From NCBI GenBank assembly GCA_964575455.1, contig CAZNRX010000001.1, positions 112,527-176,526 on the forward strand: a DNA stretch of 64,000 nucleotides, in the 5' to 3' direction. The notes beneath the pieces were generated by a model that saw only the letters and a list, made by a program, of their open reading frames with translations, was not told the origin of the DNA and searched no databases. Positions 3,947 through 49,406 of the stretch are shown here, in pieces; the stretch's first letter is position 1; each line of letters starts with the position of its first letter. This stretch comes from an uncultured Anaerolineales bacterium (GTDB lineage: Bacteria > Chloroflexota > Anaerolineae > B4-G1). The translations under genes and the position numbers were made by a program.

Positions 3947-5386
3947 CTAGGGCTGGGGGCGGCCACACACGGGCGGCCCCGGTCTCGCCTCCAGCTTGGC
4001 CCGGCTGACGATCTCGTCGAAGATGTCGGCGCCCGTCAAATCCGTCTTCTCGCTCCTGGCCACGCTCAGGTTGCGCCGGAACCCGTGCGAGAGGTCCTCG
4101 CCCGTGGCGTAGCGCGTCAGGGCCAGGGCGCGCACCGCGTTGGCAATGGCATAGCGCGGCTCGTAGCGGTCCAGATCGCCGAAGAAGAATGTGCAGCTGA
4201 TGTACATCCTCTGGCGATGGAACTGAGCCTCCAACAGATGGAGCAAGCGCTGCGTCTCCTCGCTGGTCAGATGTCCCAGGCCGTTTCCGTTCAGGAAGGC
4301 ATCCTCGGATACCTTCCCCAGCACCACGTCGATGTAGCGGTCCCGCAAGGGCCAGGGCTTGAACCCCAGCTGATTCGCTTCGCGGGCGTAGATCTGGTCC
4401 AGATCGCAGGCCAGATTGTCCAGGGCCCGTCGGAGCGCGCCCTTCCACCGGCTATTGCCAGGGGTGCAGCCGCAGCCCACAACCCAGCGATCCAGCCCGT
4501 GAGCGCAGCTCCAGGCAGTGTTCTCGATCACCCTGATCTCGGCCTCCGGCGGGTGCTGATTGAGATAGAGCCCCAGCGTGGTCAGCTGGTACCCATGACG
4601 CTCTCCGGCGCCCAGGATGTGGCTTAGCACCTGCGCGCCCTGGCGGTGATGGTGGCCGAACGTCTCGCCGTCGGTGGCGACGATGTGCAGGCCATCCCTC
4701 TGGCAGCGCCACGCCACGTGCTCCTTCAGCCAATCTTCAACGTACGCCGAGTCCGGCATGCCGAAGGAGAGGTGGTTCGATAGATGACGATCGCGCACGA
4801 AGATGGCGATCTCACTGCCGTTGGGCAGCGCCACCCGGTAGGGCCCTCCGCCCGTCTCCAGACTGCCGTACACCTGCTCGTCCGAGAGGATGGTGAAGCG
4901 AATGCCCTCTGCGGTCAGCACCTCCAGCGTCTCGTGGTCCACCGCCATCTCCGGGAGCCACATGCCGTCCGGCCGGTGACCAAAGCGATGCTCGAAGCTG
5001 GCGATCCCCCAGCGCACCTGGCAGATCTTGTCGCGCCGGCGGGCCAGCGGCAGGATCGTGTGGTGGACCGATTGGGCCAGCCCGTTGCCCATACCATGGG
5101 CCCCTCGGTACGCCTGGTCGGCCCCGACGATGCGCTCGTAGGTCTGGTGAGCCTCATCGTCGAGCCAGCGGGCCAGCGTCCCTCCCAGGTTGAAGCTGAT
5201 GCGCTCGAAGTTGCCCGCCCTTGCGTTCGGCTCGTAGCACTCCGCGGTGATGCGCTCGTTCCAGTTGGCGTAGGGAGCGGCGCTGGGCTCCCTGGAGATG
5301 CGGCCGGTGAACGGATCCTCCCGCGGGGGCTGGTAGAAATGGCCGTGAATGCAGAGACGGCAGCGTGCGTTGCTTTGACTATCCAT
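3947..5386 (-). CDS. Glycoside hydrolase family 57 protein (GH57 branching-enzyme/alpha-amylase-like).
   Basis: N-terminal 'CIHGHFYQPPRE' GH57 signature. Start taken at MDSQSNARC; the ORF extends 33 codons upstream without GH57 similarity. Confidence 0.8.
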   Translation of the reverse strand: MDSQSNARCRLCIHGHFYQPPREDPFTGRISREPSAAPYANWNERITAECYEPNARAGNFERISFNLGGTLARWLDDEAHQTYERIVGADQAYRGAHGMGNGLAQSVHHTILPLARRRDKICQVRWGIASFEHRFGHRPDGMWLPEMAVDHETLEVLTAEGIRFTILSDEQVYGSLETGGGPYRVALPNGSEIAIFVRDRHLSNHLSFGMPDSAYVEDWLKEHVAWRCQRDGLHIVATDGETFGHHHRQGAQVLSHILGAGERHGYQLTTLGLYLNQHPPEAEIRVIENTAWSCAHGLDRWVVGCGCTPGNSRWKGALRRALDNLACDLDQIYAREANQLGFKPWPLRDRYIDVVLGKVSEDAFLNGNGLGHLTSEETQRLLHLLEAQFHRQRMYISCTFFFGDLDRYEPRYAIANAVRALALTRYATGEDLSHGFRRNLSVARSEKTDLTGADIFDEIVSRAKLEARPGPPVCGRPQP

Positions 5387-6156: not shown

Positions 6157-9100
6157 TCAGGTCGCGGCAGCTTCCAGCAATCTCTCCACTCGGTACTCGG
6201 ATGCTGCCTCGGCTGCCTGTAGCGCCTCGATCACCTCGTAGCAGCTCGTGATTCTCTCGGCCGACGCCCGCTCCGGATCTGCGGCGATCGCCACCGTGGC
6301 GACCACCATCATCCACCACAGCAACTGCTCGAATGCCTCCTCATTGAACCAGAGCACGTCCTGGTACCGGTTGACCTGGAGGAAGCGCTGCACCTCGTCG
6401 TCCTCCAGCCATGAGCGAAGCACCTGGAAGGGCCGGTTCTTGGAGCCCTCACCTAGCTCGAACCAGCGCTGGTGCGTGGTCAGCACCTTGATGGTCGTCA
6501 CGGCCCACCAGGACGATCTCTCGTCGAGGCCCAGGTCCTGGATGGCGCCCGCCGTGATCTTGCCCAGGAGCCATTCGTCCTGCCAGCTGCGGCTGATCCC
6601 CGCAAAAGCCCTCGGTGACTGCGTCGCTCCCGCCTCCATCCTGCCCAGCGCGTGGCTGAAAAGCCAGCCCAGCAGCGTGGACCAGGCCCGGGGATCGTCG
6701 TCTAGGCCCACCTCCGGCACCTCCGTTGGTCCGTCCTGGATGTACTCGGCCACGTGGTCCGGCACCGACAGGCGGCTGCCTATGGTGGGCAGATCCCAAA
6801 CCACCTCCAGCTCCCGGCGTATCTGCCGGGCCAGCGACTCCTCATCGTCACCGCCGTCGGCCCGCGACTTGATCTCTTGGAGAAGCCGGAGCGTTTGTGC
6901 CTCCACCTCGTCTGCCAGCTCCTCACGTCCCTCTGCTCCTCTGCCCCTCTGCTCCCCCGCTCCTCCGCTCTCCTGCTTCCTGGCCTCCATCAGCCTCCGG
7001 AACGTCTCGGCGTTAACCAGCTCCCGAAACGGCCCATGCACCGGCTGGAGGAGCACCTCCTTGAGCGCTTCGTCGATGCTGGGGACCCCGCGTCCGTCGA
7101 GGTAGGCGGTCAGCTGGCCGTAGGGGCGCTCCACTGAGTCGCGGACCTGGCGGAAGTCGAGGAAGACGTGGTATTTGTAGGCGCTTAGCTCGGCGTACAG
7201 CCCTTTCCCGTGCAGGTCCTCGTTGCTGCGGATGTACTCAAGCCCGTTGACGTGATCCCGGAAGATGGTGTAGGTCTTAGACCCATTCTCGTCGTCGCGC
7301 AGATCCAACCCCTCGCCCAGCGATCGCTGAACCAGCTGTTTCTCGTCCTCCCCGGTCTTAGCCGCTTCGCTTCCACGGACCGCGTAGGCGACCGACGTGC
7401 GCACCCAGCCCCGCGTCTCGGCGTACCGGTTGTGGTAGAGCACCAGAGCCCGCTCGTCGCCCACGTGGTTGGAGTAGGCGAAGACGTCCTCGTTCACGTG
7501 GCCGTCGGGCGTGAAGAAGTCGTAGAGCAGAAAGTTCTCGACGTCGGCGAAGAGATACCGCTTGTGGAGCAGCGGGAAGATCTCCCGCTCGTGGCGCTCC
7601 ACCAGGTAGGTGTCCGGGGTCTCGTCCCAGTAGGCGCGGCGGTACTCCATGCCGTACTTCTCCGTGTACCCCTCAACCTGGCCATGGCCGAACATGGGCA
7701 GGCCTGGCACGGTGGCCAGCATGGTGCAGATGCCGAAGTACTTGTCGCCCTTGCCGAACTGATCCACGGCCGTGCGCTCGTCGGGGTTGTTCATGAAGTT
7801 GACGTAGCGCTTCATGATGCGCGGATCGAACGCCAGGGTGTTCTTCATCACGCTGCGGTACTTGGCGTTATCCTCGTCGCGCAGCATGTTCATGAAGGCG
7901 CTGTTATAGACGCGGTGCATGCCCAGCGTGCGCACGAAGTAGCCCTCCATCAGCCAGAACGCCTCGGCCAGCAGCAGCGTGTCCGGCACCTCCTCCGCCA
8001 CCCGGTCCACCACCTGGCGCCAGAACTCCTCCGGCATGAGCTCGTCCAGCTGCTGCCTGGTCATCCCGTGCTCCGCTCGCGAGGGGATGTCGCCGCCGGA
8101 ACCAGGCTCCGGGAACCAGAGCCTCTGGTAGTGCTTCTTCGCCAGCGTCATGGCCGCGTCGAAGCGGATGATAGGGAACTTGTGCGCCACGTGGAGGATC
8201 ATCTGAATCACGGCCTCGCGCACCTCCTCCTTCAGGAAGTTGAGCTGCGCCGTGTCGTTCCACGGCATGCTGGTGCCGTCGTTGCCGTGGTAGATGTACC
8301 GCTCGTCACCGGTCCAGTGGTCCACACGTTTGAAGACCACGGCGGCGTCGCTGCGGTCGTAGTAGCCGTCCTCCAGGTAGATCCCCACGCGATCGTCATT
8401 GCACAGATCCTCGCCGGTGAAGGAGTAGGACGGGAATGGACTGTAGTCCAGCGAGATGAAGCGCTCGGGGTGCTCGATCACCCAGCGGGAGTCGATGCCC
8501 ATGTGGTTGGGCACCATATCGCTGGCCAGCCGGATGCCCCGCCGCCAGGCGCGGTCGCGCAGGCTCTGGTACCCCTCTTCGCCGCCCAGATCGTCCGCCA
8601 CGCGGTAGTCGTCCACGGAGTAGGCGGAGGCCACCGCCTCGGGGTTGCCCATGATCTGCTTGATGCGCTGCGAGGCCGAGCTCCGCTCCCACAAGCCGAT
8701 GAGCCATAGGCTGGTGAAGCCCCGCCGGGCCAGGATGTCCAGCTCCTCGTCCGGTATGTCACCCAAACGGGTGATTGAGCGTTCATACTTCTTCGAAAGC
8801 TGATCGAGCCATACGTAGATGTTCTTGGCCAGCAGCACCACCTTCGGCATCCAGTCCTGGTCGGGGCTGAAGCGCTCATACTCTGCCTCCCTGAACTCAT
8901 AGACCCGGCTCGGACCGGGGCCGAGGAAGGTGGCCTTCTCCTCCTCGGCGATCAGGTCCAGGCTGCTGAGCAGACGATAGAGATACTTGCCCAGGAGCGA
9001 GCCCCAGCGCTCCTGCATGAACGCCAGCTGCCCCGAGAGGGAGTGGGGCGATCTGCGGGCGGGGGCGCTCAACATGTCGATCAGGTTCTCGTGGTCGGGA

Positions 9101-36981: not shown

Positions 36982-37075
36982 AACGGGACACGAAAGGCGC
37001 GAAGAACGACACGAAAGGCGCAAAGCACGACGCGAAGGACGCGAAGGATGAAGGGCACGAATGGGGTGCAGACCG
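36982..37075 (+). repeat. Phased CACGAA-type direct-repeat array (21-bp units 'gacacgaaaggcgcgaagaac' x2 plus degenerate copies) in the ftsQ-ftsA gap.
   Basis: Units at 36988-37008 and 37009-37029 differ by 2 nt, then 'gacgcgaaggacgcgaaggatgaagggcacgaatgg'. CGAA cores recur every 10-11 bp. Confidence 0.85.
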
Positions 37076-37116: not shown

Positions 37117-38337
37117 GTGGAACGAACGGTAGTCGGTATCGATGTCGGCTCCAGCAAAATATGCACGATGGTGGGAGAGGTCCGTGATAACGGCGACCTG
37201 CGTGTCGTCGGCGTTGGCCTGGTCACGGCGCGTGGCCTGCGCAAGGGCGTGGTGGTCAACGTGGATGAGGCCACGGAGGCACTCGCCGCCTCGGTCGCTG
37301 AGGCCGAGCGCTCCTCCGGGTACAAGCTTGAGCGGGCCTATGTGAGCGTCAGCGGCGAGCACATCTCATCGCTAAACAGCCAGGGTGTGGTCGGTGTCTC
37401 CCATCGCCGTTCAGGCATCACCATCGATGACGTGGAGAGGGCGCTGGACGCCGCTTGTGCCATCACGGTGTCGCACAACCAGGAGGTCATCCACGTGATC
37501 CCGCGTGGCTACGTGGTCGACGGGCAGGGCGGCGTGCAGGATCCCATCGGCATGCACGGCTTCCGCCTGGAGGTTGAGGCTCACCTCGTCACGGCCTCCT
37601 CCACGGCGATCCAGAATCTGTTGAAGTGCGTACGTCAGGCCGGCCTGGAGGCCGACGAGGTCGTCTCGGCGGGGATAGCCGCTGGCGACGCCGTCCTGGC
37701 GGAGACGGAGCGTGAGATGGGGGTGGTGCTAGCCGATATCGGCGCTGGTACCACCGACGTGGCTATCTTCATCGATGGCACTGTGTGGCACACGGTCACG
37801 CTGGGCATCGGTGGCGCCTACGTCACACAGGACATCGCCATCGGGCTTCGTCTGCCTCCGTCTGTCGCTGAGGAGATCAAGGTGAAGCACGGACATGCCC
37901 TTCCGACTCAGGTGGACAACGACGAGGTGTTCACCGTCTCCTCCTTCGGCGACGAGTTCAGCCAGGAGGTGCCGCGGTGGAAGCTGGCCAGCATCGTTCA
38001 GGCGCGGGCTGAGGAGATTCTCTCCATGATCAACAAGGAGATCAAGCGCTCGGGGTACGACGGCCTGCTGCCGGCCGGCGTGGTGCTCTCCGGTGGCACA
38101 GCGCAGCTCCTCGGCATGCGAACCCTGGGGCGGCAAGTGCTCGGCCTGCCTGTGCGCCTGGGCAGCCCCAGGAACCTCCATGGCCTGGTCGATGCCGTCA
38201 GCAACCCGGCGCACGCCGTGGGGGCGGGATTGTTGACCTGGGGGAGCACGGAGGAGGCCCGTCCACAGCTCAAGGTCCGGCCCGGGCCTGGCGGCGGGGC
38301 GCGCATCCTCAAATGGCTGCGGACGTTGCTTCCGTAA
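37117..38337 (+). CDS. ftsA: Cell division protein FtsA.
   Basis: 'VVGIDVGSSKI' actin-fold phosphate-1 motif and 'DIGAGTTDVAIF' phosphate-2 motif. Confidence 0.92.
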   Translation: MERTVVGIDVGSSKICTMVGEVRDNGDLRVVGVGLVTARGLRKGVVVNVDEATEALAASVAEAERSSGYKLERAYVSVSGEHISSLNSQGVVGVSHRRSGITIDDVERALDAACAITVSHNQEVIHVIPRGYVVDGQGGVQDPIGMHGFRLEVEAHLVTASSTAIQNLLKCVRQAGLEADEVVSAGIAAGDAVLAETEREMGVVLADIGAGTTDVAIFIDGTVWHTVTLGIGGAYVTQDIAIGLRLPPSVAEEIKVKHGHALPTQVDNDEVFTVSSFGDEFSQEVPRWKLASIVQARAEEILSMINKEIKRSGYDGLLPAGVVLSGGTAQLLGMRTLGRQVLGLPVRLGSPRNLHGLVDAVSNPAHAVGAGLLTWGSTEEARPQLKVRPGPGGGARILKWLRTLLP

Positions 38338-38430
38338 CGCGAAGGGCACGAAACAGAAGACGAAGAGCGTGAAATAGAGCACGAAGGGCACGAAGCACGA
38401 AACACACGAAACACTATGGGCACGAGATAG
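38338..38430 (+). repeat. Second phased CACGAA/CGAAG repeat array (ftsA-ftsZ intergenic region).
   Basis: 'cgcgaagggcacgaaacagaagacgaagagcgtgaaatagagcacgaagggcacgaagcacgaaacacacgaaacac' with cores spaced ~10 bp. Confidence 0.85.
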
Positions 38431-38508: not shown

Positions 38509-39585
<1,077 letters not shown>

Positions 39586-39812
39586 CGTCTCTGCGCTTCA
39601 CTGGCGCGCAGGCACGAGAAGAGTGCGCGGGGAGCGCGGGTCCGGTCTTCTGGCGGTGCGTCACTTTCCGCGCGCAGCGGATCTGCCACGGGCCATCGGC
39701 CCGTCCGCCGTCGCGGCCCGCTGTTGCGACGCCTGTCTCAGACTTGTCGGTCGTGTGCTGAGAGCTGTTCTATATCTTGCGTAGGCTTGTGCTCGATAGT
39801 GGGGCCTGGCGG

Positions 39813-39844
39813 TATGGCGCGTGGTTCTGGCCGACCACGCGCCA
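39813..39844. terminator. Strong GC hairpin (12-bp perfect stem ATGGCGCGTGGT/ACCACGCGCCAT, 8-nt loop), a candidate factor-independent terminator for the convergent ftsZ and aminotransferase transcripts; no U-tract.
   Basis: Perfect inverted repeat seen directly, located between two convergent genes. Confidence 0.45.
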
Positions 39845-39948
39845 TATCGGCCTGTGCCTGATCTCCTGGTCAGATGGGGGCTGGTGCGTGGCCGCGAGAT
39901 CGGGTGCAGCAAAAGCGACGGGGCGCGGGCTGACTCTGCCCGGGCTCC

Positions 39949-41121
39949 TCAAGGCTCGCCCGTAATGTTGAGGGCTGCCAACGCCTTCCGCATCCTCTCC
40001 AGCGCTTCGATCAGCATCGAGCGTGGACATCCGAAGTTCAGCCGTGCGAATCCCTCTCCCGCCTCACCAAAGACCGCGCCGTCGACCAGGGCCACCCTGG
40101 CTTCTTCCAGGAAGAACGTATAGGGATTGCCTGGGATACCAGACTGGTGGCAGCTCAGCCAGGCCAGATAGGTCCCCTCCGGCTTGCCCATCGTGATGCC
40201 GGGTAGCTCCCGATCCACGTAGTCCAGCAGAAAATCGCGATTCCCCTCCAGGTAACGCAGCACCGCGTCCAGCCAGGGCTGACCGTCGCGATAGGCCGCT
40301 AGAGCGGCCGTATACCCCAGCACGTTCACGCCTGACATCAGGCCGCCGTGTGTAGCCTTGAGGCTATCCCGGAGCTCCTGGTTCTCGACGATGGCCACCG
40401 CGCACTTGAGCCCGGCGATGTTGTACGTCTTGCTTGGTGCCATCAACGTGATCGACTGCTGCCCCACCTCCGGGGCCAGCGCTGCGATCGGCGTGTGCAC
40501 GTTGTCGTCGAGCAGCAGGTCGCAGTGAATCTCATCTGAACAGATGATGATCTCGTGTCGCAGACAGATCTCAGCCATCCTCTGCAGCTCATCGCGCCGG
40601 AAGACGCGTCCCACAGGGTTGTGGGGATTGCACAGGATGAAGATGCGGGTCCGGTCGCTGATGGTCCTCTCGAACAGGTCGAAGTCGATCTCGTAGGCTC
40701 CGTCCGACCGCCGGGTGAGTTCCATCTCATCGTTGATCAATCCGGCGTCGGCCGGGGCCTCCAGAATGGGCCGGTAGACCGGCGTTTGGACCAGCACACC
40801 CTCCCCAGGAGAGGCAATGGCGTGGCATGCCAGGTTGAAGCCAGGCACGACCCCCGACAGAAAGATCAGATCCTCTGGCGAGACGTGCCAATCGTAGCGT
40901 TCATGCAGCCGGCCGACGATCACCTCTCGAAGCCCGTCCGGCGCCGTGCCGTAGCCAAAGATGCCATGCTCGACCCGTTCCTGCAGGGCGCGTATGACAG
41001 GCTCCGGCGCCGGGAAGTCCATATCCGCCACCCACATGGGCAGGACATCCTCACCGTAGCGGTGCCATTTGATGCTTTCGAACCGTCGTCTGTCAATGCG
41101 TCTGTCGAAGTCGTAGATCAT
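39949..41121 (-). CDS. PLP-dependent aminotransferase class I/II, MalY/PatB-type C-S lyase (cystathionine beta-lyase-like).
   Basis: 'SKTYNIAGLKCA' PLP-lysine region and 'FILCNPHNPVGRVF'; MalY/PatB-like overall. Start at MIYDFD; the ORF extends 22 codons further upstream. Confidence 0.8.
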   Translation of the reverse strand: MIYDFDRRIDRRRFESIKWHRYGEDVLPMWVADMDFPAPEPVIRALQERVEHGIFGYGTAPDGLREVIVGRLHERYDWHVSPEDLIFLSGVVPGFNLACHAIASPGEGVLVQTPVYRPILEAPADAGLINDEMELTRRSDGAYEIDFDLFERTISDRTRIFILCNPHNPVGRVFRRDELQRMAEICLRHEIIICSDEIHCDLLLDDNVHTPIAALAPEVGQQSITLMAPSKTYNIAGLKCAVAIVENQELRDSLKATHGGLMSGVNVLGYTAALAAYRDGQPWLDAVLRYLEGNRDFLLDYVDRELPGITMGKPEGTYLAWLSCHQSGIPGNPYTFFLEEARVALVDGAVFGEAGEGFARLNFGCPRSMLIEALERMRKALAALNITGEP

Positions 41122-41287
41122 CGTGATGCTCAAATCCCCTTTTCCACGCGCCGAGGACGGCGACCGAGTCGCCATCCCTGCCTTCACCCATTCTATATCG
41201 GATGGGGCGGCTCGTCAACGCCAAACCCTTGTGCTCTGCTGGTACAGCCTTGCGCTTGAACTTTAAGATTATCTGTGCCATGCGGGC

Positions 41288-41374
41288 TTGCCCGCTGTCC
41301 CCGCCTATGGTATAATGGGGCCATACTATCCCCAACATATGGGGTTCACTACCCCACAAGACCCCATATGTGGG
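41288..41374 (+). promoter_or_regulatory. nrdR promoter (-35 TTGCCC at 41288-41293, 17-bp spacer, extended -10 TGgTATAAT at 41308-41316) followed by two NrdR-box-like palindromes (CCCAACATATGGGG at 41331-41344; CCCCATATGTGGG at 41362-41374).
   Basis: Two imperfect palindromes centred on CATATG, 29 bp centre-to-centre, downstream of the -10 box. This resembles tandem NrdR boxes (consensus roughly acaCwAtATaTwGtgt) and would imply autoregulation. Confidence 0.6.
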
Positions 41375-41486
41375 CACTCTGTCTCTTCAATGCATAATAG
41401 CAGTGAGCTCAGCGCATTGAGGCGCCAATGCGCTCAACATCTGCCCTCGGGCGGAGTATTCTCTGTTCAGCGTAGGAGAAAGGTTT

Positions 41487-41939
41487 ATGAGATGTCCATA
41501 TTGTGGCAGCAAACGCACTAGGGTCGTCGACACCGCGCGCAAGGAGCATAGCATCCGCCGTCGTCGAGAATGCAAGGAATGTGAGAAGCGCTTCTCGACC
41601 ATGGAGCGGGCCATTCTCACGACGCCACTGGTGGTCAAGCGTGACGGCCGCCGTGAGGCCTTCGACCGGGAGAAAGTTCTCTCTGGCCTGCGGGTCGCGT
41701 GCGCTCGGCGGCCCGTGTCGGCCGGCGATCTGGAGCGCGTGGTCGACCGGGTTGAGAGCCATATCCGCGAGTTGGGCAAGACCGAGATTCCCACCCGCGC
41801 CATCGGTGACGTCGTGATTGAGGAGCTGAAGTCCCTGGATCCTGTCTCCTACATTCGCTATGCCATCATCTACCTCGGGCTGGAGGATTTGGAGGCGGTG
41901 CGGACAGAGGTCAACCGCTTGCTGGAGGAACAGGAGTAG
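41487..41939 (+). CDS. nrdR: Transcriptional repressor NrdR (zinc ribbon + ATP-cone).
   Basis: 'MRCPYCGSKRTRVVDT...RRRECKECEKRFST' zinc ribbon and an ATP-cone domain; 150 aa. Confidence 0.93.
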   Translation: MRCPYCGSKRTRVVDTARKEHSIRRRRECKECEKRFSTMERAILTTPLVVKRDGRREAFDREKVLSGLRVACARRPVSAGDLERVVDRVESHIRELGKTEIPTRAIGDVVIEELKSLDPVSYIRYAIIYLGLEDLEAVRTEVNRLLEEQE

Positions 41940-42049
41940 CGTGGAGGGGCCGAGATGGAGCCGGGCCATAGCGTCGCACCCGCGATGCCGGTTGCCTGAT
42001 GGGGTGGCCGCAGGTTGATCGCGAGGGCGACGGAAGGAGTGAGGGTTCG

Positions 42050-42685
42050 ATGGCAGAGACACCAGATCTGAGCGGTGTGCCCCTGCGCCTGAACAAGCAC
42101 GTCTATGAGTATTATCAGTTTCAAGGATATGATACGAATGACTGCGGGCCTACCAGCGTGGCGATCGCGGTGAACGCCTTGTTGGGGGGCTGGGTGCTGG
42201 AGGGTCCGGTCGTGGCCGAGGAGATGAGCCACGTCGCCTTCGAGTGGAAGCCCCTGCCCCACCTGGTGGTGCCCCGCATTCCGAACTGGGCCACCTTCCC
42301 ATGGGGGATCGCCCACTACCTGCGGAAGCAGGGGTTCCGCGCCCGCTGGCGCCTGTTTGGGACGCTGGAGAGACTAGAGCGCAACCTGCGCGCTGATCTG
42401 CTGACGATGGTCATAGTAGGCGAGCCTTGGAAATGGGCTAGGGACGATCCAGATCAGTCCGGGCGGGAGCGATGGGTCTATGATGGATGGGGGCACGTCA
42501 AGATCCTCTATGGTCAGCTGCCGGGGCGCAGGTTGTACTTCGTCGATCCCGGCTGGAACGCCGAGAACAGAGAGGATCCCTTGGAGCGGTTTGGCATCTT
42601 TTCGCAGGAGGAGGACCAATTCCTTCGTGAGTGGCGGAACTTGCTGCGTATCTTCATTGAGGTGGAGGAGAATCCGCGAGCCTAA
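42050..42685 (+). CDS. Papain-like cysteine peptidase, C39-like domain protein (hypothetical).
   Basis: 'QFQGYDTNDCGPTSVAIAVNAL' fits the C39/C39-like Cys motif (Q...xDCGxxxLxM), with a downstream 'GHVKILYG' His. GAGGG RBS before MAETPD. Confidence 0.5.
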   Translation: MAETPDLSGVPLRLNKHVYEYYQFQGYDTNDCGPTSVAIAVNALLGGWVLEGPVVAEEMSHVAFEWKPLPHLVVPRIPNWATFPWGIAHYLRKQGFRARWRLFGTLERLERNLRADLLTMVIVGEPWKWARDDPDQSGRERWVYDGWGHVKILYGQLPGRRLYFVDPGWNAENREDPLERFGIFSQEEDQFLREWRNLLRIFIEVEENPRA

Positions 42686-42761
42686 GACCGGATGACGAAG
42701 GTGGGTGAGGTGCTCCCTGAGCCTGCCTGTTGAGTATGTTGCATAGCATGAGGAGAACAGC

Positions 42762-43139
42762 ATGTCAGATCGCAATGCCGCGTCGCCTAAGATGACTGCG
42801 CCCATCCATGAGCTTCTCATCGTTTGGACCAGCGGCGACCGGGACGTCGCGCTGAAGATGGTCTTCATGTACGCCGCCAACGCCAAACGACATGATTGGT
42901 GGGATGAGGTCAATCTACTCGTCTGGGGCTCCTCGCAGAAGCTGCTGGCGGAGGACTCGGAGCTCCAGGCCGAGCTGACCACGATGATCGAGCTGGGTGT
43001 GCACGTGGGCGCGTGCAAGGCCTGCGCCGACGGCTACTCGGTCACCGAGCAGCTCGAGGAGCTGGGCGTGGAGGTCTTCTACAGCGGCGAGTACCTGACC
43101 GACTGGATCAAGTCGGGCCGGGCCGTGATCACATTCTAG
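42762..43139 (+). CDS. DsrE/DsrF/TusD-like sulfur-relay family protein.
   Basis: ~125 aa with 'LIVWTSGD' and 'GACKACADGY' characteristic of the DsrE fold. Confidence 0.6.
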   Translation: MSDRNAASPKMTAPIHELLIVWTSGDRDVALKMVFMYAANAKRHDWWDEVNLLVWGSSQKLLAEDSELQAELTTMIELGVHVGACKACADGYSVTEQLEELGVEVFYSGEYLTDWIKSGRAVITF

Positions 43140-43149
43140 GCCCAGCCCC

Positions 43150-43272
43150 GGTGCGTTGGTGCATTGCACGTGCCGTGCGTGCGGGCCACCTGGCGGAGTA
43201 CGGTGCGTTGCACGTGCTGTGCGTGCGGGCCACCTGGCGGAGTACGGTGCGTTGCACGTGCCGTGCGTGCGA
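43150..43272 (+). repeat. Tandem repeat, ~44-bp unit x2.7 (ggtgcgttgcacgtgcYgtgcgtgcgggccacctggcggagtac), each copy carrying the palindrome GCACGTGC.
   Basis: Copies at 43150-43201 (with an 8-bp internal duplication), 43202-43245 and 43246-43272 (partial). GCACGTGC at 43166, 43210 and 43254, exactly 44 bp apart. Confidence 0.9.
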
Positions 43273-43313
43273 CGCATCTGGAGCAGAGCAGCGAGCTGCA
43301 CGTTTGGAGATAC

Positions 43314-43559
43314 ATGGACGAGGAACACACAGACATATCGGACGATGCCAACCAGCGCGAGCTGGAGGAGGCCCCCAACGGGCCGCTCAAGATCGTGATG
43401 GACGCGCGGGATCTGGAGTTCCTCGATGGGGCGTTTGGAGCGGTCACGGCGTTCTTCATGCTGATGTACGTCGACCAGGCCGACTTCCTCGGAAGAGGTG
43501 GAGACAGGATACGGGGTTCTCTGGCCCGAGAGGCCATTGGACGTCCGTCGCTACGTTGA
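43314..43559 (+). CDS. Small acidic hypothetical protein (81 aa).
   Basis: GGAGA RBS before the ATG at 43314. The longer listed ORF starts inside the tandem repeat and is unlikely to be coding there. Confidence 0.35.
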   Translation: MDEEHTDISDDANQRELEEAPNGPLKIVMDARDLEFLDGAFGAVTAFFMLMYVDQADFLGRGGDRIRGSLAREAIGRPSLR

Positions 43560-43700
43560 GCTGGCGCGGCAGGTGGGATTCGACATAGAGGAGCGATGGG
43601 AGAGTGATCGGGTTTTTCGTCTCTCACTGCGCAAAGCGTGAGATGGGTCGACAGAGGGCGTGCCGATGATGGAAGCAATTTCAGTGAAGGAGGATAGACG

Positions 43701-44477
43701 GTGGAGGAGATGACGACGATGGCGTCGCTGCGAGAGGTTTTTACGTTTCCTTTTCGCGGTCCCGACTGGAAGCAGCCCTTCATCATCGGGTCCGTGCTAC
43801 TGATCGTGAGCTTCTTCATCCCGATCCTGCCGCTGATCTTCGTCTGCGGCTACGTGCTCGTGGTGATGCGTCAGGCCATCCGGGGGAATGAGCTCACCCT
43901 GCCGCGTTGGGACGACTGGGGCAAGCTGGCGGGGGACGGCCTGCGCGCCATGCTGGTTGGCTTCATCTACCTGCTGCCGGGGCTGTTGGTCGCGTCTGGC
44001 GGCTTTGCGCTATACCTTGCGACCACGTTTGCTATGCCCTTCGCCATCGAGGCTGGAGACGAAACCCTCTGGCCGCTCCTCTTCTTCGGCAGCTTCGCCA
44101 TTATGTTCCTCTCGATGTTTCTCGGGACCCTGCTCACGCTGTTAGGGGCGATTCCACTGCCGATAGCCACTGCGCACTTCATTGACGAGGACGACCTGTC
44201 GGCCGCTTTTCGATTCCGTCAGTGGTGGCGGCTGCTGCGCGCGAACCCGATGGGCGTCTTCATCGCCTGGGTGATGGTGGCTGGGCTGATGGCCATCGTC
44301 TATCTGGTCGTCTTGCTGGCCTACTACACACTTGTGCTGTGCTGCGCGGTCCCGTTCCTGGCGAGTCCCATCGGCTTCTACGTCCTGCTGGTGAGCGCCG
44401 CCATCTTTGGGCGCACCTATCGGGAGAGCTGGCGGATGGTGGCGGACAGCCGTGTTGCAGAGAAAAACGGGCCGTGA
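43701..44477 (+). CDS. Polytopic membrane protein (DUF4013-like), 258 aa.
   Basis: 6-7 TM helices with the conserved-looking '[10 protein letters not shown]' and '[11 protein letters not shown]' segments. GGAGGAG RBS. Immediately upstream of nrdJ. Confidence 0.55.
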
Positions 44478-44572
44478 AAGAAGCTTGCGCTTCAGCTTTC
44501 GCATCGGAACCGCGCAACTTTGGCCCGATACGTTACTTGACCCCTTCGGCCCATACCGAGATTGGAGAGAAT

Positions 44573-47023
44573 ATGACGATACAGGAAACAATGGAGATTG
44601 ACGCACCTAATCAGGAGGCATCCATTGAAGACAGGCTTTCCGAGAACGCCCTGAAGGTCTTCCAGCGCCGTTACGTGCGCAAAGGACCGGACGGACAGCC
44701 CGTGGAAACGGTAGCGGGTGTCTTTCGTCGTGTCGCCTCCCATGTCGCCGCTGCCGAGGAGGGCCTCAACGGCGACGCTCAGCGGGCGGAGAAGATCTTC
44801 TTCGACCTTATGACCCGGCTCCACTTCCTGCCCAACTCGCCGACCTTCACCGGCGCGGGCACGCCTCTCTCACAGCTGGCGGCCTGCTTCGTCCTACCTA
44901 TCTCCGACGACATGGGGCGTCGGGATGATGGCATCTTCGAGACGCTGCGGGACATGGCGCTGATTCAACAGACCGGTGGCGGTACCGGCTTCTCGTTCTC
45001 CCGTCTGCGGCCTAAGAGCGCCGTCGTTCATTCCAGCGGCGGCGAGGCCACCGGCCCAGTCGGCTTCATGCAGGTCTACGACACCGCCTCCGAGATCATC
45101 AGCCAGGGCGGAGCGCGGCGCGGCGCGAACATGGCGGTCCTCCACGTCAACCATCCCGACATCCGCGACTTCATTCACTGCAAGTCGAGTGAGTACGCCA
45201 TCACCAACTTCAACATCTCCGTCGGCATCACGGATGACTTCATGCGGGCCGTCGCCCAGGACGAGAACGTCGACCTGGTCAACCCTCAGGATGGGGAGGT
45301 ATGGGAGACCGTCGCCGCCCGGGAGCTGTTCGACGAGATGGTGAAAGCGGCCCATCGGAACGGCGAGCCAGGCTTGCTCTTCTTGGACACGGCCAATCGG
45401 GACAATCCCACGCCCCATCTGGGCGACTATGAGGCGACCAATCCGTGCGGAGAGCAGCCCTTGCTCCCCTATGAGAACTGCTGCCTGGGATCCATCAACC
45501 TGGCGCGTCACGTGAGGCCGGCCAGCAACGACGGCAGGCGCGCGGTCAGGGTGGTCGACTGGGAGAAGCTTGAGGAGACGATCCGACAGGCGGTCCGCTT
45601 CCTCGACGATGTCGTCGGCGCCAACGGATACGTGCCGGCCGTGCCCGAGCTGCGCGAGGCTGCTCGGCGCACGCGCCGCATCGGCCTGGGCATCACCGGG
45701 CTGGGCGACGTGCTCTATCAACTCCGCGTGCGCTACGGCAGCCAGGAGGCGCGAGATCTGGCCGGCCAGTTGATGGCCTTCATCCGCTACCACGCTATGC
45801 GCACCAGCGTCGACCTGGCGCGCGAGCGAGGCCCCTTCCCGGCCATCGAGGGCAGCGTCTACGATCCTGCGGACGTGCGCTGGGAGCCACCCCAGCCCGT
45901 CGAGCCCTTCGACCCGTCGAACCATTGGGGTCGGCCCTCGCTCCATTGGGACGCCCTCGTGGCCGATATCGAGCGTCACGGCATCCGGAACGCGGCCCAG
46001 ACGACCATCGCGCCGACGGGCACCCGCTCGACCATCGCCGGCATAGAGGCCTACGGCTGCGAGCCGGTCTTCGCTCTTGCCTACGTGCGTCACATGAACG
46101 ACAACGGTCAGGACGTGGAACTCGAGTACACCAGCCCTCTCTTCCTGCAGGCCCTGACGGAGGCCGGGTTGGACGAGGCGTCGCGCCAGCAGATCATCGA
46201 GCAGGTAGCGGTCTCTGGGAGCTGTCAGGACGTGGAGCAGGTTCCCGAGGCCATCCGCGAGGTCTTTGTCGTGGCCCAGGACGTTCCCGCGGAAGAGCAT
46301 GTCCGCATGCAGGCCGCGCTTCAGGCCTTCGTGGATGCCTCCATCAGCAAGACCATCAACTTCCCGGGCGACGCAGAGCCTGAGGAGGTGGCTCGCGCGT
46401 TTGAGCTGGCCTGGAAGCTGGGATGCAAGGGCCTCACTGTCTACGTGACGGGCTCGCGCGAGAAAGTGGTGCTGGAGACGAAGGAGACGAGGCAGGCCAA
46501 GCAGCGGCCCACGGCCGGCATGATGTCCACCGATGTGCGGCCGCGCCCTCACACGCTGGAGGGCAAGACCTACAGAGTGCAGACCCCCCTGGGCACAGCC
46601 TACACCACGGTCAACGTCAACGGCGACGGCGAGCCGTTCGAGGTGTTTCTCAACGTGGGCAAGGCCGGGTCGGACACAGCGGCGGTGGCGGAGGCTATCG
46701 GGCGCCTGGTCTCGTTGGTTCTGCGTTTGCCCTCACCCCTCTCGTCCAGGCGGAGGCTGAACCAGGTGGTTCGACAGCTGCGGGGCATCGGCAGTGGTCG
46801 CTCGTTGGGCTTTGGACGTGACCGGGTGCGCAGCCTCCCGGACGGCGTGGCGCAGGTGCTGGCCGAGCACCTGGGCCTTGCGGAGCCCGTGGAGGGCGCC
46901 AAGAGGAGCGAGCAGCTCCCACTCTTCCCGGAGGGCGATCTCTGTCCCGAGTGTGGTCAGGCTTCACTCGTCTTCGAGGAGGGCTGTCGCCACTGCTACA
47001 ACTGCGGCTACAGCGAATGCTAG
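44573..47023 (+). CDS. nrdJ: Adenosylcobalamin-dependent (class II) ribonucleoside-diphosphate/triphosphate reductase NrdJ.
   Basis: 816 aa with '[12 protein letters not shown]', '[11 protein letters not shown]' and '[21 protein letters not shown]' active-site regions, and a C-terminal CxxC...CxxC zinc ribbon. GGAGAGA RBS. The listed ORF starts 117 codons too early. Confidence 0.92.
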
Positions 47024-47041
47024 GTGTTTCTGGAGGGGGGA

Positions 47042-48058
47042 CTACACCACCTCCACGTTCAGCGCGGAGAGGACCGCGTCGATCGGGTTGAGGATCGTCG
47101 CGGCCGGTGACCCCGCGAAGAGCAGGCCCACCACGCGCTTCTCCATGTCCAGCACCGCCGATCCGGAGTCCCCACCCTCGCTCATGGGGCTGGCGATCAA
47201 CTGCCCCGTGAAGAGCGCCTTCGGGCCGTAGTAGTCGATGCGCACCGTGGCGTCGACCTGGGTGATGGTCCCCTTGGTGTAGCCCGTGGTCCGGCCTGAC
47301 TTCTGCACCTCGGTCCCCAGCGACGCTGTGCCGACGCCCACCGGCGTGCCAATGCCCAGGATCTCGTTGGTCACCTGATTCGGCGAGAGCGGTCGCGCCA
47401 GAGCGGCGTCCACTCGATTGGCCGCCTCGCTCCTCTTCACCGCCTCGAGCTCGTGGCGCGACCCCAGGGCCCCTGCGATGACGTTCATGAGCTTCGCCGT
47501 CCAGTCGGCGATGTCGCACTCGGACGGCTCCGAGTCGAAGATCAGAGGCACGTACTCCGCCAGCCTGGCGATCCGGTCCTCCGGCCCGCCACCGTCCGCG
47601 GATCCGGGCTGGAGGATCGGGTCCCAGATCTCGCACGTGTTGGTGTTGGCGAGCACATGGTTGTTGGAGAGGATGAACAGCTCTTCGTCGCGGTGTACCA
47701 GGCAGCCGAACGTGCCGGCGGTGATCAGGTAGTGTCCCACAGAGACGCCGGGTGGGATGACCGGTCGCCAGCGGTCTTGCGGCCCCAGCTCCTCCCCTCC
47801 GGAGGGGAGGGCGCGCAGCAGCCCCGTCTCGACCACATCTGTCTTGACGTTCTCCACCTTCGGGGGCACCAGATCTCGTGCCGTCAGCGCGGCGGCTGGC
47901 TCCTTGTGCGTCACCGAAACCACGACGCTCAGCTCCCCGGTGTTCTCCCCTTGGCTTACCTTGTAGCCCAGGCCAACGCCCACCACGTTGCGCTTCCCCA
48001 GTAGATCGACGGCATGCGTCTCCTTGGCGCTTTTCGCCTGAGCGAGTCCATGCACCAT
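47042..48058 (-). CDS. Chymotrypsin-fold (S1-like) serine peptidase with an N-terminal ~90-aa accessory domain.
   Basis: Candidate triad His 'GHYLITAGTFGC', Asp, and Ser 'GDSGSAVLD'. AGGAGGTGA RBS. The N-domain 'NVVGVGLGYK...ELSVVVSVTHKEP' is paralogous to the upstream small ORF. Confidence 0.7.
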   Translation of the reverse strand: MVHGLAQAKSAKETHAVDLLGKRNVVGVGLGYKVSQGENTGELSVVVSVTHKEPAAALTARDLVPPKVENVKTDVVETGLLRALPSGGEELGPQDRWRPVIPPGVSVGHYLITAGTFGCLVHRDEELFILSNNHVLANTNTCEIWDPILQPGSADGGGPEDRIARLAEYVPLIFDSEPSECDIADWTAKLMNVIAGALGSRHELEAVKRSEAANRVDAALARPLSPNQVTNEILGIGTPVGVGTASLGTEVQKSGRTTGYTKGTITQVDATVRIDYYGPKALFTGQLIASPMSEGGDSGSAVLDMEKRVVGLLFAGSPAATILNPIDAVLSALNVEVV

Positions 48059-48099
48059 CGCGTCACCTCCTAAACACGAAAACCACGAACTACGCTGCT

Positions 48100-48366
48100 C
48101 TATGTGAGTGCCCGGAACTGGCCCACAGCCTCGATGTCCACAGGCACGCCATCCAACTCATGCGGTACGATGTCCTTTGCCTTGAGCTTCGAACGGGGTA
48201 CCTTGTGCGTCACCGAGACGACGATGGCTGGTTCGTCCGTTAGCCTCCCACGCCGTCTGCGAAACCCGATGCCTACGCCAACCACGTTAGCCTTCCGCAT
48301 CAGCCTACCCTCGTGCTTCGTCTTGACGCGTCGGAGCCGCTTCATCTGTTCCTTCGATACTGGCAT
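48100..48366 (-). CDS. Stand-alone 88-aa protein homologous to the N-terminal domain of the adjacent S1-like peptidase.
   Basis: 'NVVGVGIGFRRRRGRLTDEPAIVVSVTHKVPRSKLKAKDIVPHELDGVPVDIEAVG' aligns with the protease N-domain. GGAGGAG RBS 7 nt before the ATG at 48366. The longer 317-aa listed ORF upstream of this Met is GC-rich antisense. Confidence 0.6.
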   Translation of the reverse strand: MPVSKEQMKRLRRVKTKHEGRLMRKANVVGVGIGFRRRRGRLTDEPAIVVSVTHKVPRSKLKAKDIVPHELDGVPVDIEAVGQFRALT

Positions 48367-48416
48367 GTCTCTCTCCTCCGTCCCGGTCGGTGGCCGGACC
48401 CTTCCTCCACGCTCGC

Positions 48417-49406
48417 CTACTCTGATGTGGAGATGAGGCGCATCTGCATCAACTGGGCCTGCTGCGTCGCGGCCAAGGCCTGGAGCCTCCTGTCGCCGCT
48501 CTGATCGGCTAGCTCGGCCGCTCGCTCTAGGTCGGCCAGAGCAGCGTCGTAGTCCTTCTCCGCGGCGGCCACTCCGGCTCGCATATAGTATCCCCAACCT
48601 GACGTCGGATCCAGGTCGATGGCCTTGTTGGCGTCGGCCCTCGACTTCGCCACGTCGCCCGCCTGCAGGTAGATTGGGGCCCGGTTGAGGACGAAATCGA
48701 ACCGCGTCTCGTAGAGGGGCTCGGCGGCAGCGAAGGCTTCCTCGGCCTGGGTCGATGCCCCAAGCTGGCCGTGCAGCACCCCTTTCCAGAGCCACGGTTC
48801 GGGATCGTCTGGGGTGAGCTCCGTCGCGGCGTTGAACGCCGCGAGCGCCGCTCGCAGGTCCCCCTCCGCAACCTGATATCTGCCTGCTTCCATGTGCCGT
48901 AACGCCTCGCCCACCTCCGGAGGGGGGGCGAGGAATCGCTCGTAGGCCAGCCACGCGCCCGCCAGAAGGACGATGACGGCCAGCGCGCCCGCCGCCAACC
49001 GCATTAGCCTGCGGCGCCGTTGCCTGGCGGCCGCTTCGTCCAGGTGCCACCACCAGTTGTCGGATAGGGAATCCCGACTGCTGCGCCTAGCTTCTTCGAG
49101 GGCCCAGCCTGCCTGTTTCAGGAAGCGCTCCTTGCGGTGCTGCAGCTGCCGCTGAAGGGTCTCGAACCTCGTCTGCTCGATGCGCACGTCCACGTCCTGC
49201 TGCCCGAGATCGTGCAGCTCGTGGTCGATGCGGTCCAGGAGGTGGAGCAGCTCCAGTGGATTCGACAAGGTGGATCGGTCTCCCACCTCAGACGCCCGCG
49301 AGCCGGCGTCGCTCAGGGCAGAGATCGCGCGCTCGGCCTGATCCAGCGCTTCGCGTACGCGGTCGATCGTCGTGCGGCTCTTGGATGGGACGTAGAGCTT
49401 ACCCAT
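48417..49406 (-). CDS. TPR-repeat protein with one TM helix.
   Basis: TM 'LAAGALAVIVLLAGAWLAY' followed by several TPR-like helical pairs. Start uncertain (MGKLYV at 49406 or upstream at 49538). Confidence 0.55.
   Translation of the reverse strand: MGKLYVPSKSRTTIDRVREALDQAERAISALSDAGSRASEVGDRSTLSNPLELLHLLDRIDHELHDLGQQDVDVRIEQTRFETLQRQLQHRKERFLKQAGWALEEARRSSRDSLSDNWWWHLDEAAARQRRRRLMRLAAGALAVIVLLAGAWLAYERFLAPPPEVGEALRHMEAGRYQVAEGDLRAALAAFNAATELTPDDPEPWLWKGVLHGQLGASTQAEEAFAAAEPLYETRFDFVLNRAPIYLQAGDVAKSRADANKAIDLDPTSGWGYYMRAGVAAAEKDYDAALADLERAAELADQSGDRRLQALAATQQAQLMQMRLISTSE

Follow-up and report, generated by a model that had tools for sequence, protein, structure and literature searches.

The closest described counterpart of the locus considered here is the nrdRJ operon, in which the gene for the repressor NrdR, a protein with a Zn-ribbon and an ATP-cone, is followed on the same strand by nrdJ, the gene for the class II (B12-dependent) ribonucleotide reductase (RNR). 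In published accounts, the NrdR operator is described as two partially palindromic 16-bp boxes that are separated by a linker of 15–16 bp and overlap the region of transcription start (PMC13584703, PMC9110341), and the S. coelicolor nrdRJ promoter with its NrdR boxes is the characterised case (PMC9110341). The same gene order, the same type of NrdR and two 16-bp boxes with a 15-bp linker are present in a stretch of 64,000 nucleotides from an uncultured Anaerolineales bacterium (GenBank assembly GCA_964575455.1, contig CAZNRX010000001.1, positions 112,527 to 176,526), which in its full length is referred to here as the window. It differs from the known operon in that nrdR and nrdJ are held apart by a spacer of about 2.6 kb, containing three intact genes, one pseudogene, and one repeat. 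The comparisons presented here suggest that this is probably an nrdRJ-type operon that was split, in one clade of the Anaerolineae, by unrelated passenger genes that were later partly lost, which would be an instance of ordinary operon growth. The features of the locus, in window positions, are as follows.

41288–41316, plus strand: predicted sigma-70-like promoter (TTGCCC, 17 nt, TG-TATAAT), found by consensus scan with 10/12 matches and an extended -10 TG
41330–41376, no strand assigned: NrdR box pair, CCCCAACATATGGGGT at 41330–41345 and ACCCCATATGTGGGCA at 41361–41376, near reverse complements of each other with a 15-bp linker
41487–41939, plus strand: nrdR, repressor (TIGR00244, 151.7 bits against a cut-off of 124.65; PF22811, Zn_ribbon_NrdR, and PF03477, ATP-cone)
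42050–42685, plus strand: stand-alone C39-like (papain-fold) Cys peptidase, 211 aa, its start matching that of a 211-aa homologue (P0001); a longer open reading frame runs from 41999
42762–43139, plus strand: DsrE/DsrF-family protein of 125 aa with a CxxC motif (PF02635, 26.9 bits against a cut-off of 22.7, passed)
43158–43271, no strand assigned: tandem repeat, period 44 nt, 2.6 copies, in the spacer between the DsrE-like gene and the methyltransferase remnant (TRF score 214, 95% matches)
43314–43641, plus strand: pseudogene remnant of a class-I S-adenosylmethionine (SAM) methyltransferase, recognised by comparison with the intact gene of locus L081
43701 (GTG) or 43710 (ATG) to 44477, plus strand: DUF4013 polytopic membrane protein, 255–258 aa (PF13197, 110.4 bits against a cut-off of 26.9, passed)
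44573 (ATG) to 47023, plus strand: nrdJ, class II (B12-dependent) RNR (TIGR02504, 669.3 bits against a cut-off of 399.95)

Both ends of the locus are identified by their families. NrdR carries the Zn-ribbon and the ATP-cone and scores above the equivalog cut-off of TIGR00244, and NrdJ, which lies above that of TIGR02504, has the RNR barrel and all-alpha domain, a C-terminal TSCPD domain, and a Cys-rich tail (PF02867 at 442 bits, PF00317, PF12637). All of the open reading frames (ORFs) from nrdR through nrdJ are co-oriented on the plus strand, with intergenic gaps of 59–174 nt. The features that a sequence-only reading of this stretch had placed between nrdR and nrdJ are all present, at or very near the positions it gave them, and every gene among them has the orientation that it had reported. 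Other ORFs in the block have no Pfam match (42374–43018, 43136–43819, 41870–42316, and 44142–44606 on the minus strand and 43013–43588 on the plus strand), and these antisense and alternative-frame ORFs have been treated as high-GC artefacts.

The proteins of the window were compared by tblastn with the 80 loci of the C39-like alignment, with loci retrieved through NrdR (of which L087–L098 were useful, most of the others being from different phyla), and with contigs containing exact protein matches; the linkage counts given here rest on tblastn together with called genes. Where NrdR is at least 79% identical to that of the window and the spacer is covered, the C39-like gene is found between nrdR and nrdJ in all 19 contigs, the window being one of these (the others are L001–L007, L009–L011, L013, L014, L081, L087, L088, L090, L171, and L172). 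The linkage, for which the sequence-only reading had proposed a check of neighbourhood conservation, is not therefore unique to this genome, and it usually includes the DsrE-like gene, which is present in 13 of the loci. The remaining partners in the spacer vary. A gene for an AlkD-like DNA_alkylation protein is present in 11 loci, split in one of them (L007), a PHP/PHP_C gene in nine (two remnants, L002 and L090), and the methyltransferase gene in seven (two remnants, the window and L001). DUF4013 is present in four loci, lying directly 5' of nrdJ also in L081, L171, and L172, and in the same place in one JGI contig without DNA. Genes for an SDR protein, a CN_hydrolase, an SLFN_AlbA_2 protein, and a DUF7309/DUF6930 protein are found once each. 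The DsrE-like gene is absent from four spacers that are complete (L004, L010, L013, L014), and neither the PHP nor the AlkD-like gene is present in the spacer of the window. On a wider scale the synteny of the clade is kept, with ftsZ and an aminotransferase gene, then the nrd block, and then a Trypsin_2-like peptidase.

In the next most similar contigs there is no room for such a spacer, nrdJ starting approximately 50–270 nt after nrdR (L091, L094, and L095, with NrdR identities of 72–75%, and L096 and L098, with 48–51%), and in three of these five compact contigs ftsZ is just upstream. From these gene orders, the compact arrangement is taken to be ancestral. A neighbour-joining tree of 88 C39-like sequences, calculated without support values, places the 17 that are linked to nrd genes in one cluster. 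Around the more distant C39-like genes (L008, L012, and L015–L080, approximately 65 homologues) neither nrdR nor nrdJ is found within the available flanks of up to 8 kb. Roughly 12 of these loci have an Asparaginase_2 gene and a gene for a secreted protein upstream and a PMT_2 glycosyltransferase gene downstream, and the other contexts include a luciferase-like monooxygenase, a Tmk-C39-ParB order, an FtsK-C39-RsmG order, acyl-CoA genes, and a methyltransferase with an epimerase. Three DsrE-like homologues from other phyla, one of them named as Bacteroidetes, are likewise isolated genes in unrelated contexts with no nrd genes nearby. Because the linkage is confined to a single clade, the outgroups are compact, and the distant homologues are unlinked, the conservation of this neighbourhood is by descent, and the recurrent, independent linkage that would speak for functional coupling is not seen. 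The distribution agrees with one insertion in an ancestor and differing losses afterwards, as far as gene order and sequence relationships indicate.

The retention of the C39-like gene in 19 of 19 spacers, and of the DsrE-like gene in 13, might otherwise be taken to mean that the peptidase and the CxxC DsrE-fold protein, perhaps together with the PHP and AlkD-like proteins, make up an accessory module of the NrdR regulon that acts on the RNR or on replication. One protein of such a module may supply the Cys-rich tail of NrdJ with a dedicated thiol reductant or handle its persulfides, and another may be a protease for the maturation or turnover of a replication, division, or RNR factor. This would agree with the invariant CxxC of the DsrE-like family, with the position of the sole NrdR operator upstream of the whole block, and with the presence of the C39-like family in the Tmk-C39-ParB and FtsK-C39-RsmG contexts. 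It is, however, improbable, given that the linkage is limited to one monophyletic clade, that the DsrE-like gene is missing from the four complete spacers named above, that no nrd neighbours accompany the remaining C39-like loci or the DsrE-like genes looked at in other phyla, and that the nrdR-nrdJ operons of the outgroups work without any of these genes. The signal-peptide-like start of several Bacteroidota members of the DsrE-like family would also be a misfit for a cytoplasmic partner of the RNR. The sequence-only reading had offered either an accessory redox or thiol-related module or simply an insertion; the second is supported by the single clade and the compact outgroups, while the first has gained no independent support.

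An insertion could in principle be a recent mobile element or a horizontally acquired island, or the block could be a maturation locus for a bacteriocin or another ribosomally synthesized and post-translationally modified peptide (RiPP), with leader cleavage by the C39-like protein. The GC content does dip slightly, to 0.57–0.59, at 42400–43000 and at 43400–43800, and distant C39-like homologues in L170, L042, and L028 have one to three tandem genes for 38-aa peptides just upstream. Yet the GC content of the block as a whole, 0.57–0.66, is only mildly lower than the 0.60–0.70 of its flanks, and there is no integrase or transposase gene and no flanking direct repeat, nor is there a tRNA gene between 30000 and 56000. 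The block does not have the marks of a mobile element or genomic island, and it has been inherited across a clade in which the C39-like proteins are only 47–91% identical. There is no ABC transporter fused to the peptidase or next to it, and a hidden Markov model made from the six peptides matches neither the window nor any locus linked to nrd genes. Origins of this kind are largely refuted and are regarded as highly unlikely.

The partial loss of passengers can be followed within the window itself. The sequence-only reading had listed a small ORF after the repeat, which runs from an ATG at 43314 to 43559 and is overlapped by a second frame at 43489–43641; its Methyltransf_11 match is weak and partial (20.0 bits against a cut-off of 21.2, E 1e-3). 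In L081, a JGI contig in which the C39-like protein is 91% identical to that of the window, the order is nrdR, C39-like, DsrE, a 206-aa Methyltransf_11/25 protein, DUF4013, and nrdJ. The first frame in the window corresponds to residues 52–101 of this intact methyltransferase (78% identity), residues 1–10 being kept in that frame too, and the second frame corresponds to residues 157–206 (88% identity). Two deletions separate the window copy from the L081 gene. The first is in-frame and comprises approximately 44 codons (about residues 11–54), taking with it the SAM-binding motif I, LDLGGGGEG, and the second, of approximately 160 nt (residues 102–156), shifts the frame. The window sequence thus lacks the intact Rossmann fold and the glycine-rich motif I of a functional methyltransferase. 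Since motif I is deleted and the frame is shifted relative to L081, the small ORF is, on this sequence comparison, a methyltransferase pseudogene and not an independent gene, and in this respect the earlier listing does not stand.

The tandem repeat between the DsrE-like gene and this remnant has an imperfect palindrome in its 44-nt unit, around GCACGTGC. When the two loci are aligned, there is one copy of the unit in L081 and 2.6 in the window. Apart from the single copy in L081, the unit was found neither elsewhere in the window nor in the other loci. A dispersed element of the REP (repetitive extragenic palindromic) type was considered for it and rejected, as the unit does not recur. Folding of the region as RNA in comparison with shuffled sequences (z = -0.91) gave no evidence of a selected structure. 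Because L081 has a single unit at the same spot, the repeat is read as a lineage-specific expansion in the window lineage, which may have arisen by slipped-strand duplication.

The NrdR boxes of the window are the only matches in its 64 kb. They were also detected as an inverted repeat with arms 15 nt apart, and they lie just downstream of the -10 sequence TATAAT, so that a pair of partial palindromes of 16 bp, 15 bp apart, is predicted at a promoter, in the architecture described for NrdR. In comparison with the known nrdRJ operon the boxes are GC-rich at their flanks (CCCCaATATaTgGGGt). With a position weight matrix built from the boxes upstream of nrdR in the clade, a box pair was detected before nrdR in 10 of 12 relatives and in seven loci outside the matrix, including the outgroups L091 and L093, 17 in all, with a start-to-start spacing of 30–32 bp that is 31 bp in most. 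A further four relatives (L006, L013, L014, L095) have a single scoring box upstream of nrdR. No scoring box is present elsewhere in the in-clade loci; outgroup L094 has a second, weak match (13.1 bits) at 114 bp from the first. In none of the loci scanned is there an NrdR box before nrdJ. Between the boxes and the start codon of nrdR, in what would be the leader, there is a terminator-like hairpin at 41440–41455 (TCTGCC-CTCG-GGCGGA, with a T-rich tail), which could be an attenuator or a chance match.

From the end of nrdR to the start of nrdJ, a consensus scan gave no predicted intrinsic terminator. Nor is there a promoter-like site in this stretch by a scan for the sigma-70 E. coli-type consensus, which may miss Chloroflexota signals. 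Rfam gave no match at the gathering thresholds in the whole window, so that neither a cobalamin riboswitch nor any other known RNA precedes nrdJ. When the 140 nt in front of nrdJ were aligned for 16 loci with differing upstream genes, the ribosome-binding site was the one conserved element. As neither an operator nor a conserved promoter precedes nrdJ itself, the genes are co-oriented, and the gaps are short, the passengers would be read through from the nrdR promoter, and it is plausible, from the arrangement of these sequences, that the stretch from nrdR to nrdJ is co-transcribed, as had been suggested. Promoters of their own might nevertheless serve the passengers and nrdJ, in which case the block would not be one operon, the passengers would be outside NrdR control, and nrdJ would be uncoupled from NrdR or regulated in some other way. 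Gaps of 59–174 nt could hold promoters that a scan limited to sigma-70 E. coli-type sites does not recognise, and a terminator could lie in the repeat downstream of the DsrE-like gene, which bears a hairpin. This arrangement is doubtful when set against the lack of promoter-like sites inside the block by that scan, the strict co-orientation in all loci, and the conservation of the ribosome-binding site only upstream of nrdJ in spite of the changing genes before it; nrdJ, moreover, is the expected target of NrdR and would have to be without an NrdR box of its own in every locus.

Under the explanation preferred here, the ancestral unit would have consisted of nrdR and then nrdJ, autoregulated through the NrdR box pair at the nrdR promoter. 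Unrelated passengers would have been inserted between the two genes in the ancestor of one Anaerolineae clade, and the fullest versions have the order nrdR, PHP, C39-like, AlkD-like (in some), DsrE-like, methyltransferase, DUF4013, nrdJ. The descendants have all kept the C39-like gene and lost differing subsets of the other passengers. In the window lineage, the methyltransferase gene is now decaying, with its two deletions, and the 44-nt element in the spacer has been expanded, probably by slippage. Transcription of the passengers is most likely by read-through from the promoter that NrdR represses, and they would then be expressed when the demand for deoxynucleoside triphosphates is high. 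The identities of the genes, the pseudogene, the single origin with its differential loss, and the place of the operator are shown by these comparisons, from which co-transcription and NrdR control of the passengers are inferred. We infer, too, that the passengers, a peptidase with Gln, Cys, His, and Asp, a DsrE-fold CxxC protein, and a membrane protein, most likely act independently of the reductase, with no direct role in it.

Several observations weigh against this explanation. The C39-like gene is kept in every member of the clade while its neighbours vary, which could indicate selection for its position. The AlkD-like and PHP proteins are proteins of DNA metabolism and would suit an NrdR regulon, and the CxxC of the DsrE-like family is invariant, class II RNR being an enzyme that requires a dithiol reductant. 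On the side of transcription, the scans for promoters and terminators used E. coli-type consensus sequences, by which Chloroflexota signals may be missed, and transcription could end at the repeat with its hairpin downstream of the DsrE-like gene. The data come mostly from contigs of metagenome-assembled genomes (MAGs), so that the methyltransferase deletions could be assembly errors and the copy number of the repeat may likewise be an artefact, and the C39 tree is without support values.

The C39-like protein itself has a papain-like fold with Gln (for the oxyanion hole), Cys, His, and Asp in the order of the clan CA/C39 enzymes. Q25, the D31-C32 pair, and H149 do not vary in the alignment of 39 members, and at least 90% of these have D166. 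A loop with the sequence RIPNWATFPWG is also invariant across this alignment and is specific to the family. The AlphaFold (AF2) model has a predicted local distance difference test score (pLDDT) of 93.7 and a predicted template modelling score (pTM) of 0.90. There are 82 homologues, all from MAGs of Anaerolineae/Chloroflexota where named, and, by their record titles, the 80 listed out of 119 genome loci with a gene for a relative all belong to the Chloroflexota. With PF13529 (Peptidase_C39_2) the window protein reaches 13.1 bits (E 0.15), below the cut-off of 24; 33 of the 39 aligned family members match this profile at E values of 0.1 or less, the best being 6.5e-9. By this sub-threshold score, by its own RIPNWATFPWG loop, and by its restriction to Chloroflexota it differs from the stand-alone PF13529 peptidases, such as that of Bacillus anthracis (PDB 3ERV). 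As no hydrophobic N-terminal segment or signal peptide can be read from its sequence, it is probably cytoplasmic.

The protein was described in the sequence-only reading as a C39-type peptidase without an ABC-transporter fusion. Indeed, it is a single domain of 211 aa with no fusion, and there is no ABC transporter gene within 39000–49000. In this it differs from the C39 domains of the PCAT/AMS exporters (PCAT1, ComA, LahT150), as it does in having no double-glycine precursor gene nearby. A bacteriocin-processing peptidase of the PCAT type was therefore ruled out, there being neither a transporter nor a precursor gene. The statement that none of the proteins could be assigned beyond the level of fold is fair for the peptidase and for the DUF4013 protein, and failed for the small ORF, in which the decayed methyltransferase had been missed.

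The DsrE-like protein belongs to the DsrE/DsrF/TusD family, passing the threshold of PF02635 and sharing with it a length of about 115 aa and conserved Cys residues in the ACxxC segment. The subfamily is large and highly conserved, and the protein has approximately 790 homologues, including some from Bacteroidota, with identities of up to about 60%, and most of those listed carry PF02635 in their precomputed annotation. The subfamily has an invariant motif, A84-C85-x-x-C88-x-D90. The closest solved structure is 2FB6 (2fb6_A), aligned over residues 16–124 with an E value of 2.7e-26; this relative, of 117 aa, is annotated merely as a 'conserved hypothetical protein'. By eye, several of the Bacteroidota members have a hydrophobic, signal-peptide-like extension at the N-terminus, which is not seen in the Chloroflexota members. 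The window protein differs from the DsrEFH/TusBCD relay in being encoded by a lone gene, with no sulfur-oxidation genes nearby, and in having CxxC as its motif. The block and 19 related loci contain no DsrE paralogue, no DsrF/H or TusB/C gene, and no other dsr or tus gene. Membership of a sulfur relay was rejected for this gene, since it has no partner subunits. The DUF4013 protein, polytopic and membrane-located by prediction, is a clear member of its Pfam family, its match covering positions 2–165 of the 168 in the PF13197 profile.

Some features of the neighbouring genes were recorded in the same comparison. The Aminotran_1_2 gene between ftsZ and nrdR (39949–41187, minus strand) is clade-specific, and in the outgroups L091, L096, and L098 nrdR is directly after ftsZ, which would suggest that genes were gained on both sides of nrdR in this lineage. 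Directly 3' of nrdJ is the Trypsin_2-like peptidase gene (47042–48058, minus strand), and this is followed by a short paralogous N-terminal fragment (48100–49053, minus strand), which is NAL1_N in relatives. This pair is kept in nearly all of the clade members that have downstream sequence, as tightly as the nrd block is. In L011, nrdJ is interrupted by approximately 1.1 kb (L011:4614–5707) at the position of residue 292 of the window NrdJ, which could be an intein or another insertion. Just upstream of ftsZ in the window there are short tandem repeats at 36987–37046, 37210–37252, and 38378–38425, with periods of 21, 18, and 16 nt, for example GACACGAAAGGCGCGAAGAAC in 2.9 copies.

Other observations concern the distant C39-like homologues. 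In three MAGs, genes for peptides of approximately 38 aa, one to three in tandem, are found directly upstream of homologues that are 35–37% identical to the window protein (L170:3338–3454, 4357–4473, and 4713–4829; L042:7334–7435 and 7661–7768; L028:116–208). The consensus of the peptides is ..YEAPxI(V/I)EEGxLEI(Q/R)AGSPLGFPEDPFELD, and a luciferase-like monooxygenase gene is often downstream of the peptide-linked homologues. The YxxPxLxxxG segment and a core that starts with Gly and carries Glu8/Asp9 resemble lasso-peptide or other RiPP precursors; no lasso cyclase gene was seen by these loci. These putative precursor peptides are the most interesting by-product of the analysis. In L168 (GCA_054920995.1), an RVT_1 reverse transcriptase and a bAvd gene are present at 6576–8501 on the minus strand, approximately 1 kb and one gene downstream of a C39-like homologue. 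A reverse transcriptase together with bAvd is the hallmark of a diversity-generating retroelement, and its presence near this homologue is probably coincidental.

The work on the C39-like protein defines a well-conserved family of stand-alone peptidases, found here in the Chloroflexota only and with a confident structural model, and a DsrE subfamily with an invariant CxxC and a solved, uncharacterised structure (2FB6) has been flagged as a minor lead. If the improbable accessory module did exist, the NrdR regulon of this Anaerolineae clade would have an extension that has so far gone unrecognised, expressed together with class II RNR and including, in sister lineages, the PHP and AlkD-like DNA-repair proteins. 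Under the explanation preferred here, the locus would indicate that a tight, autoregulated operon of two genes, nrdR and nrdJ, can gather unrelated passengers and then shed them, and that adjacency to nrd genes in this clade is no evidence of function. If the read-through from the nrdR promoter is true, the peptidase, the DsrE-fold protein with its CxxC, and the membrane protein would come under the control of NrdR, whose regulon in the Chloroflexota would be the wider for it.

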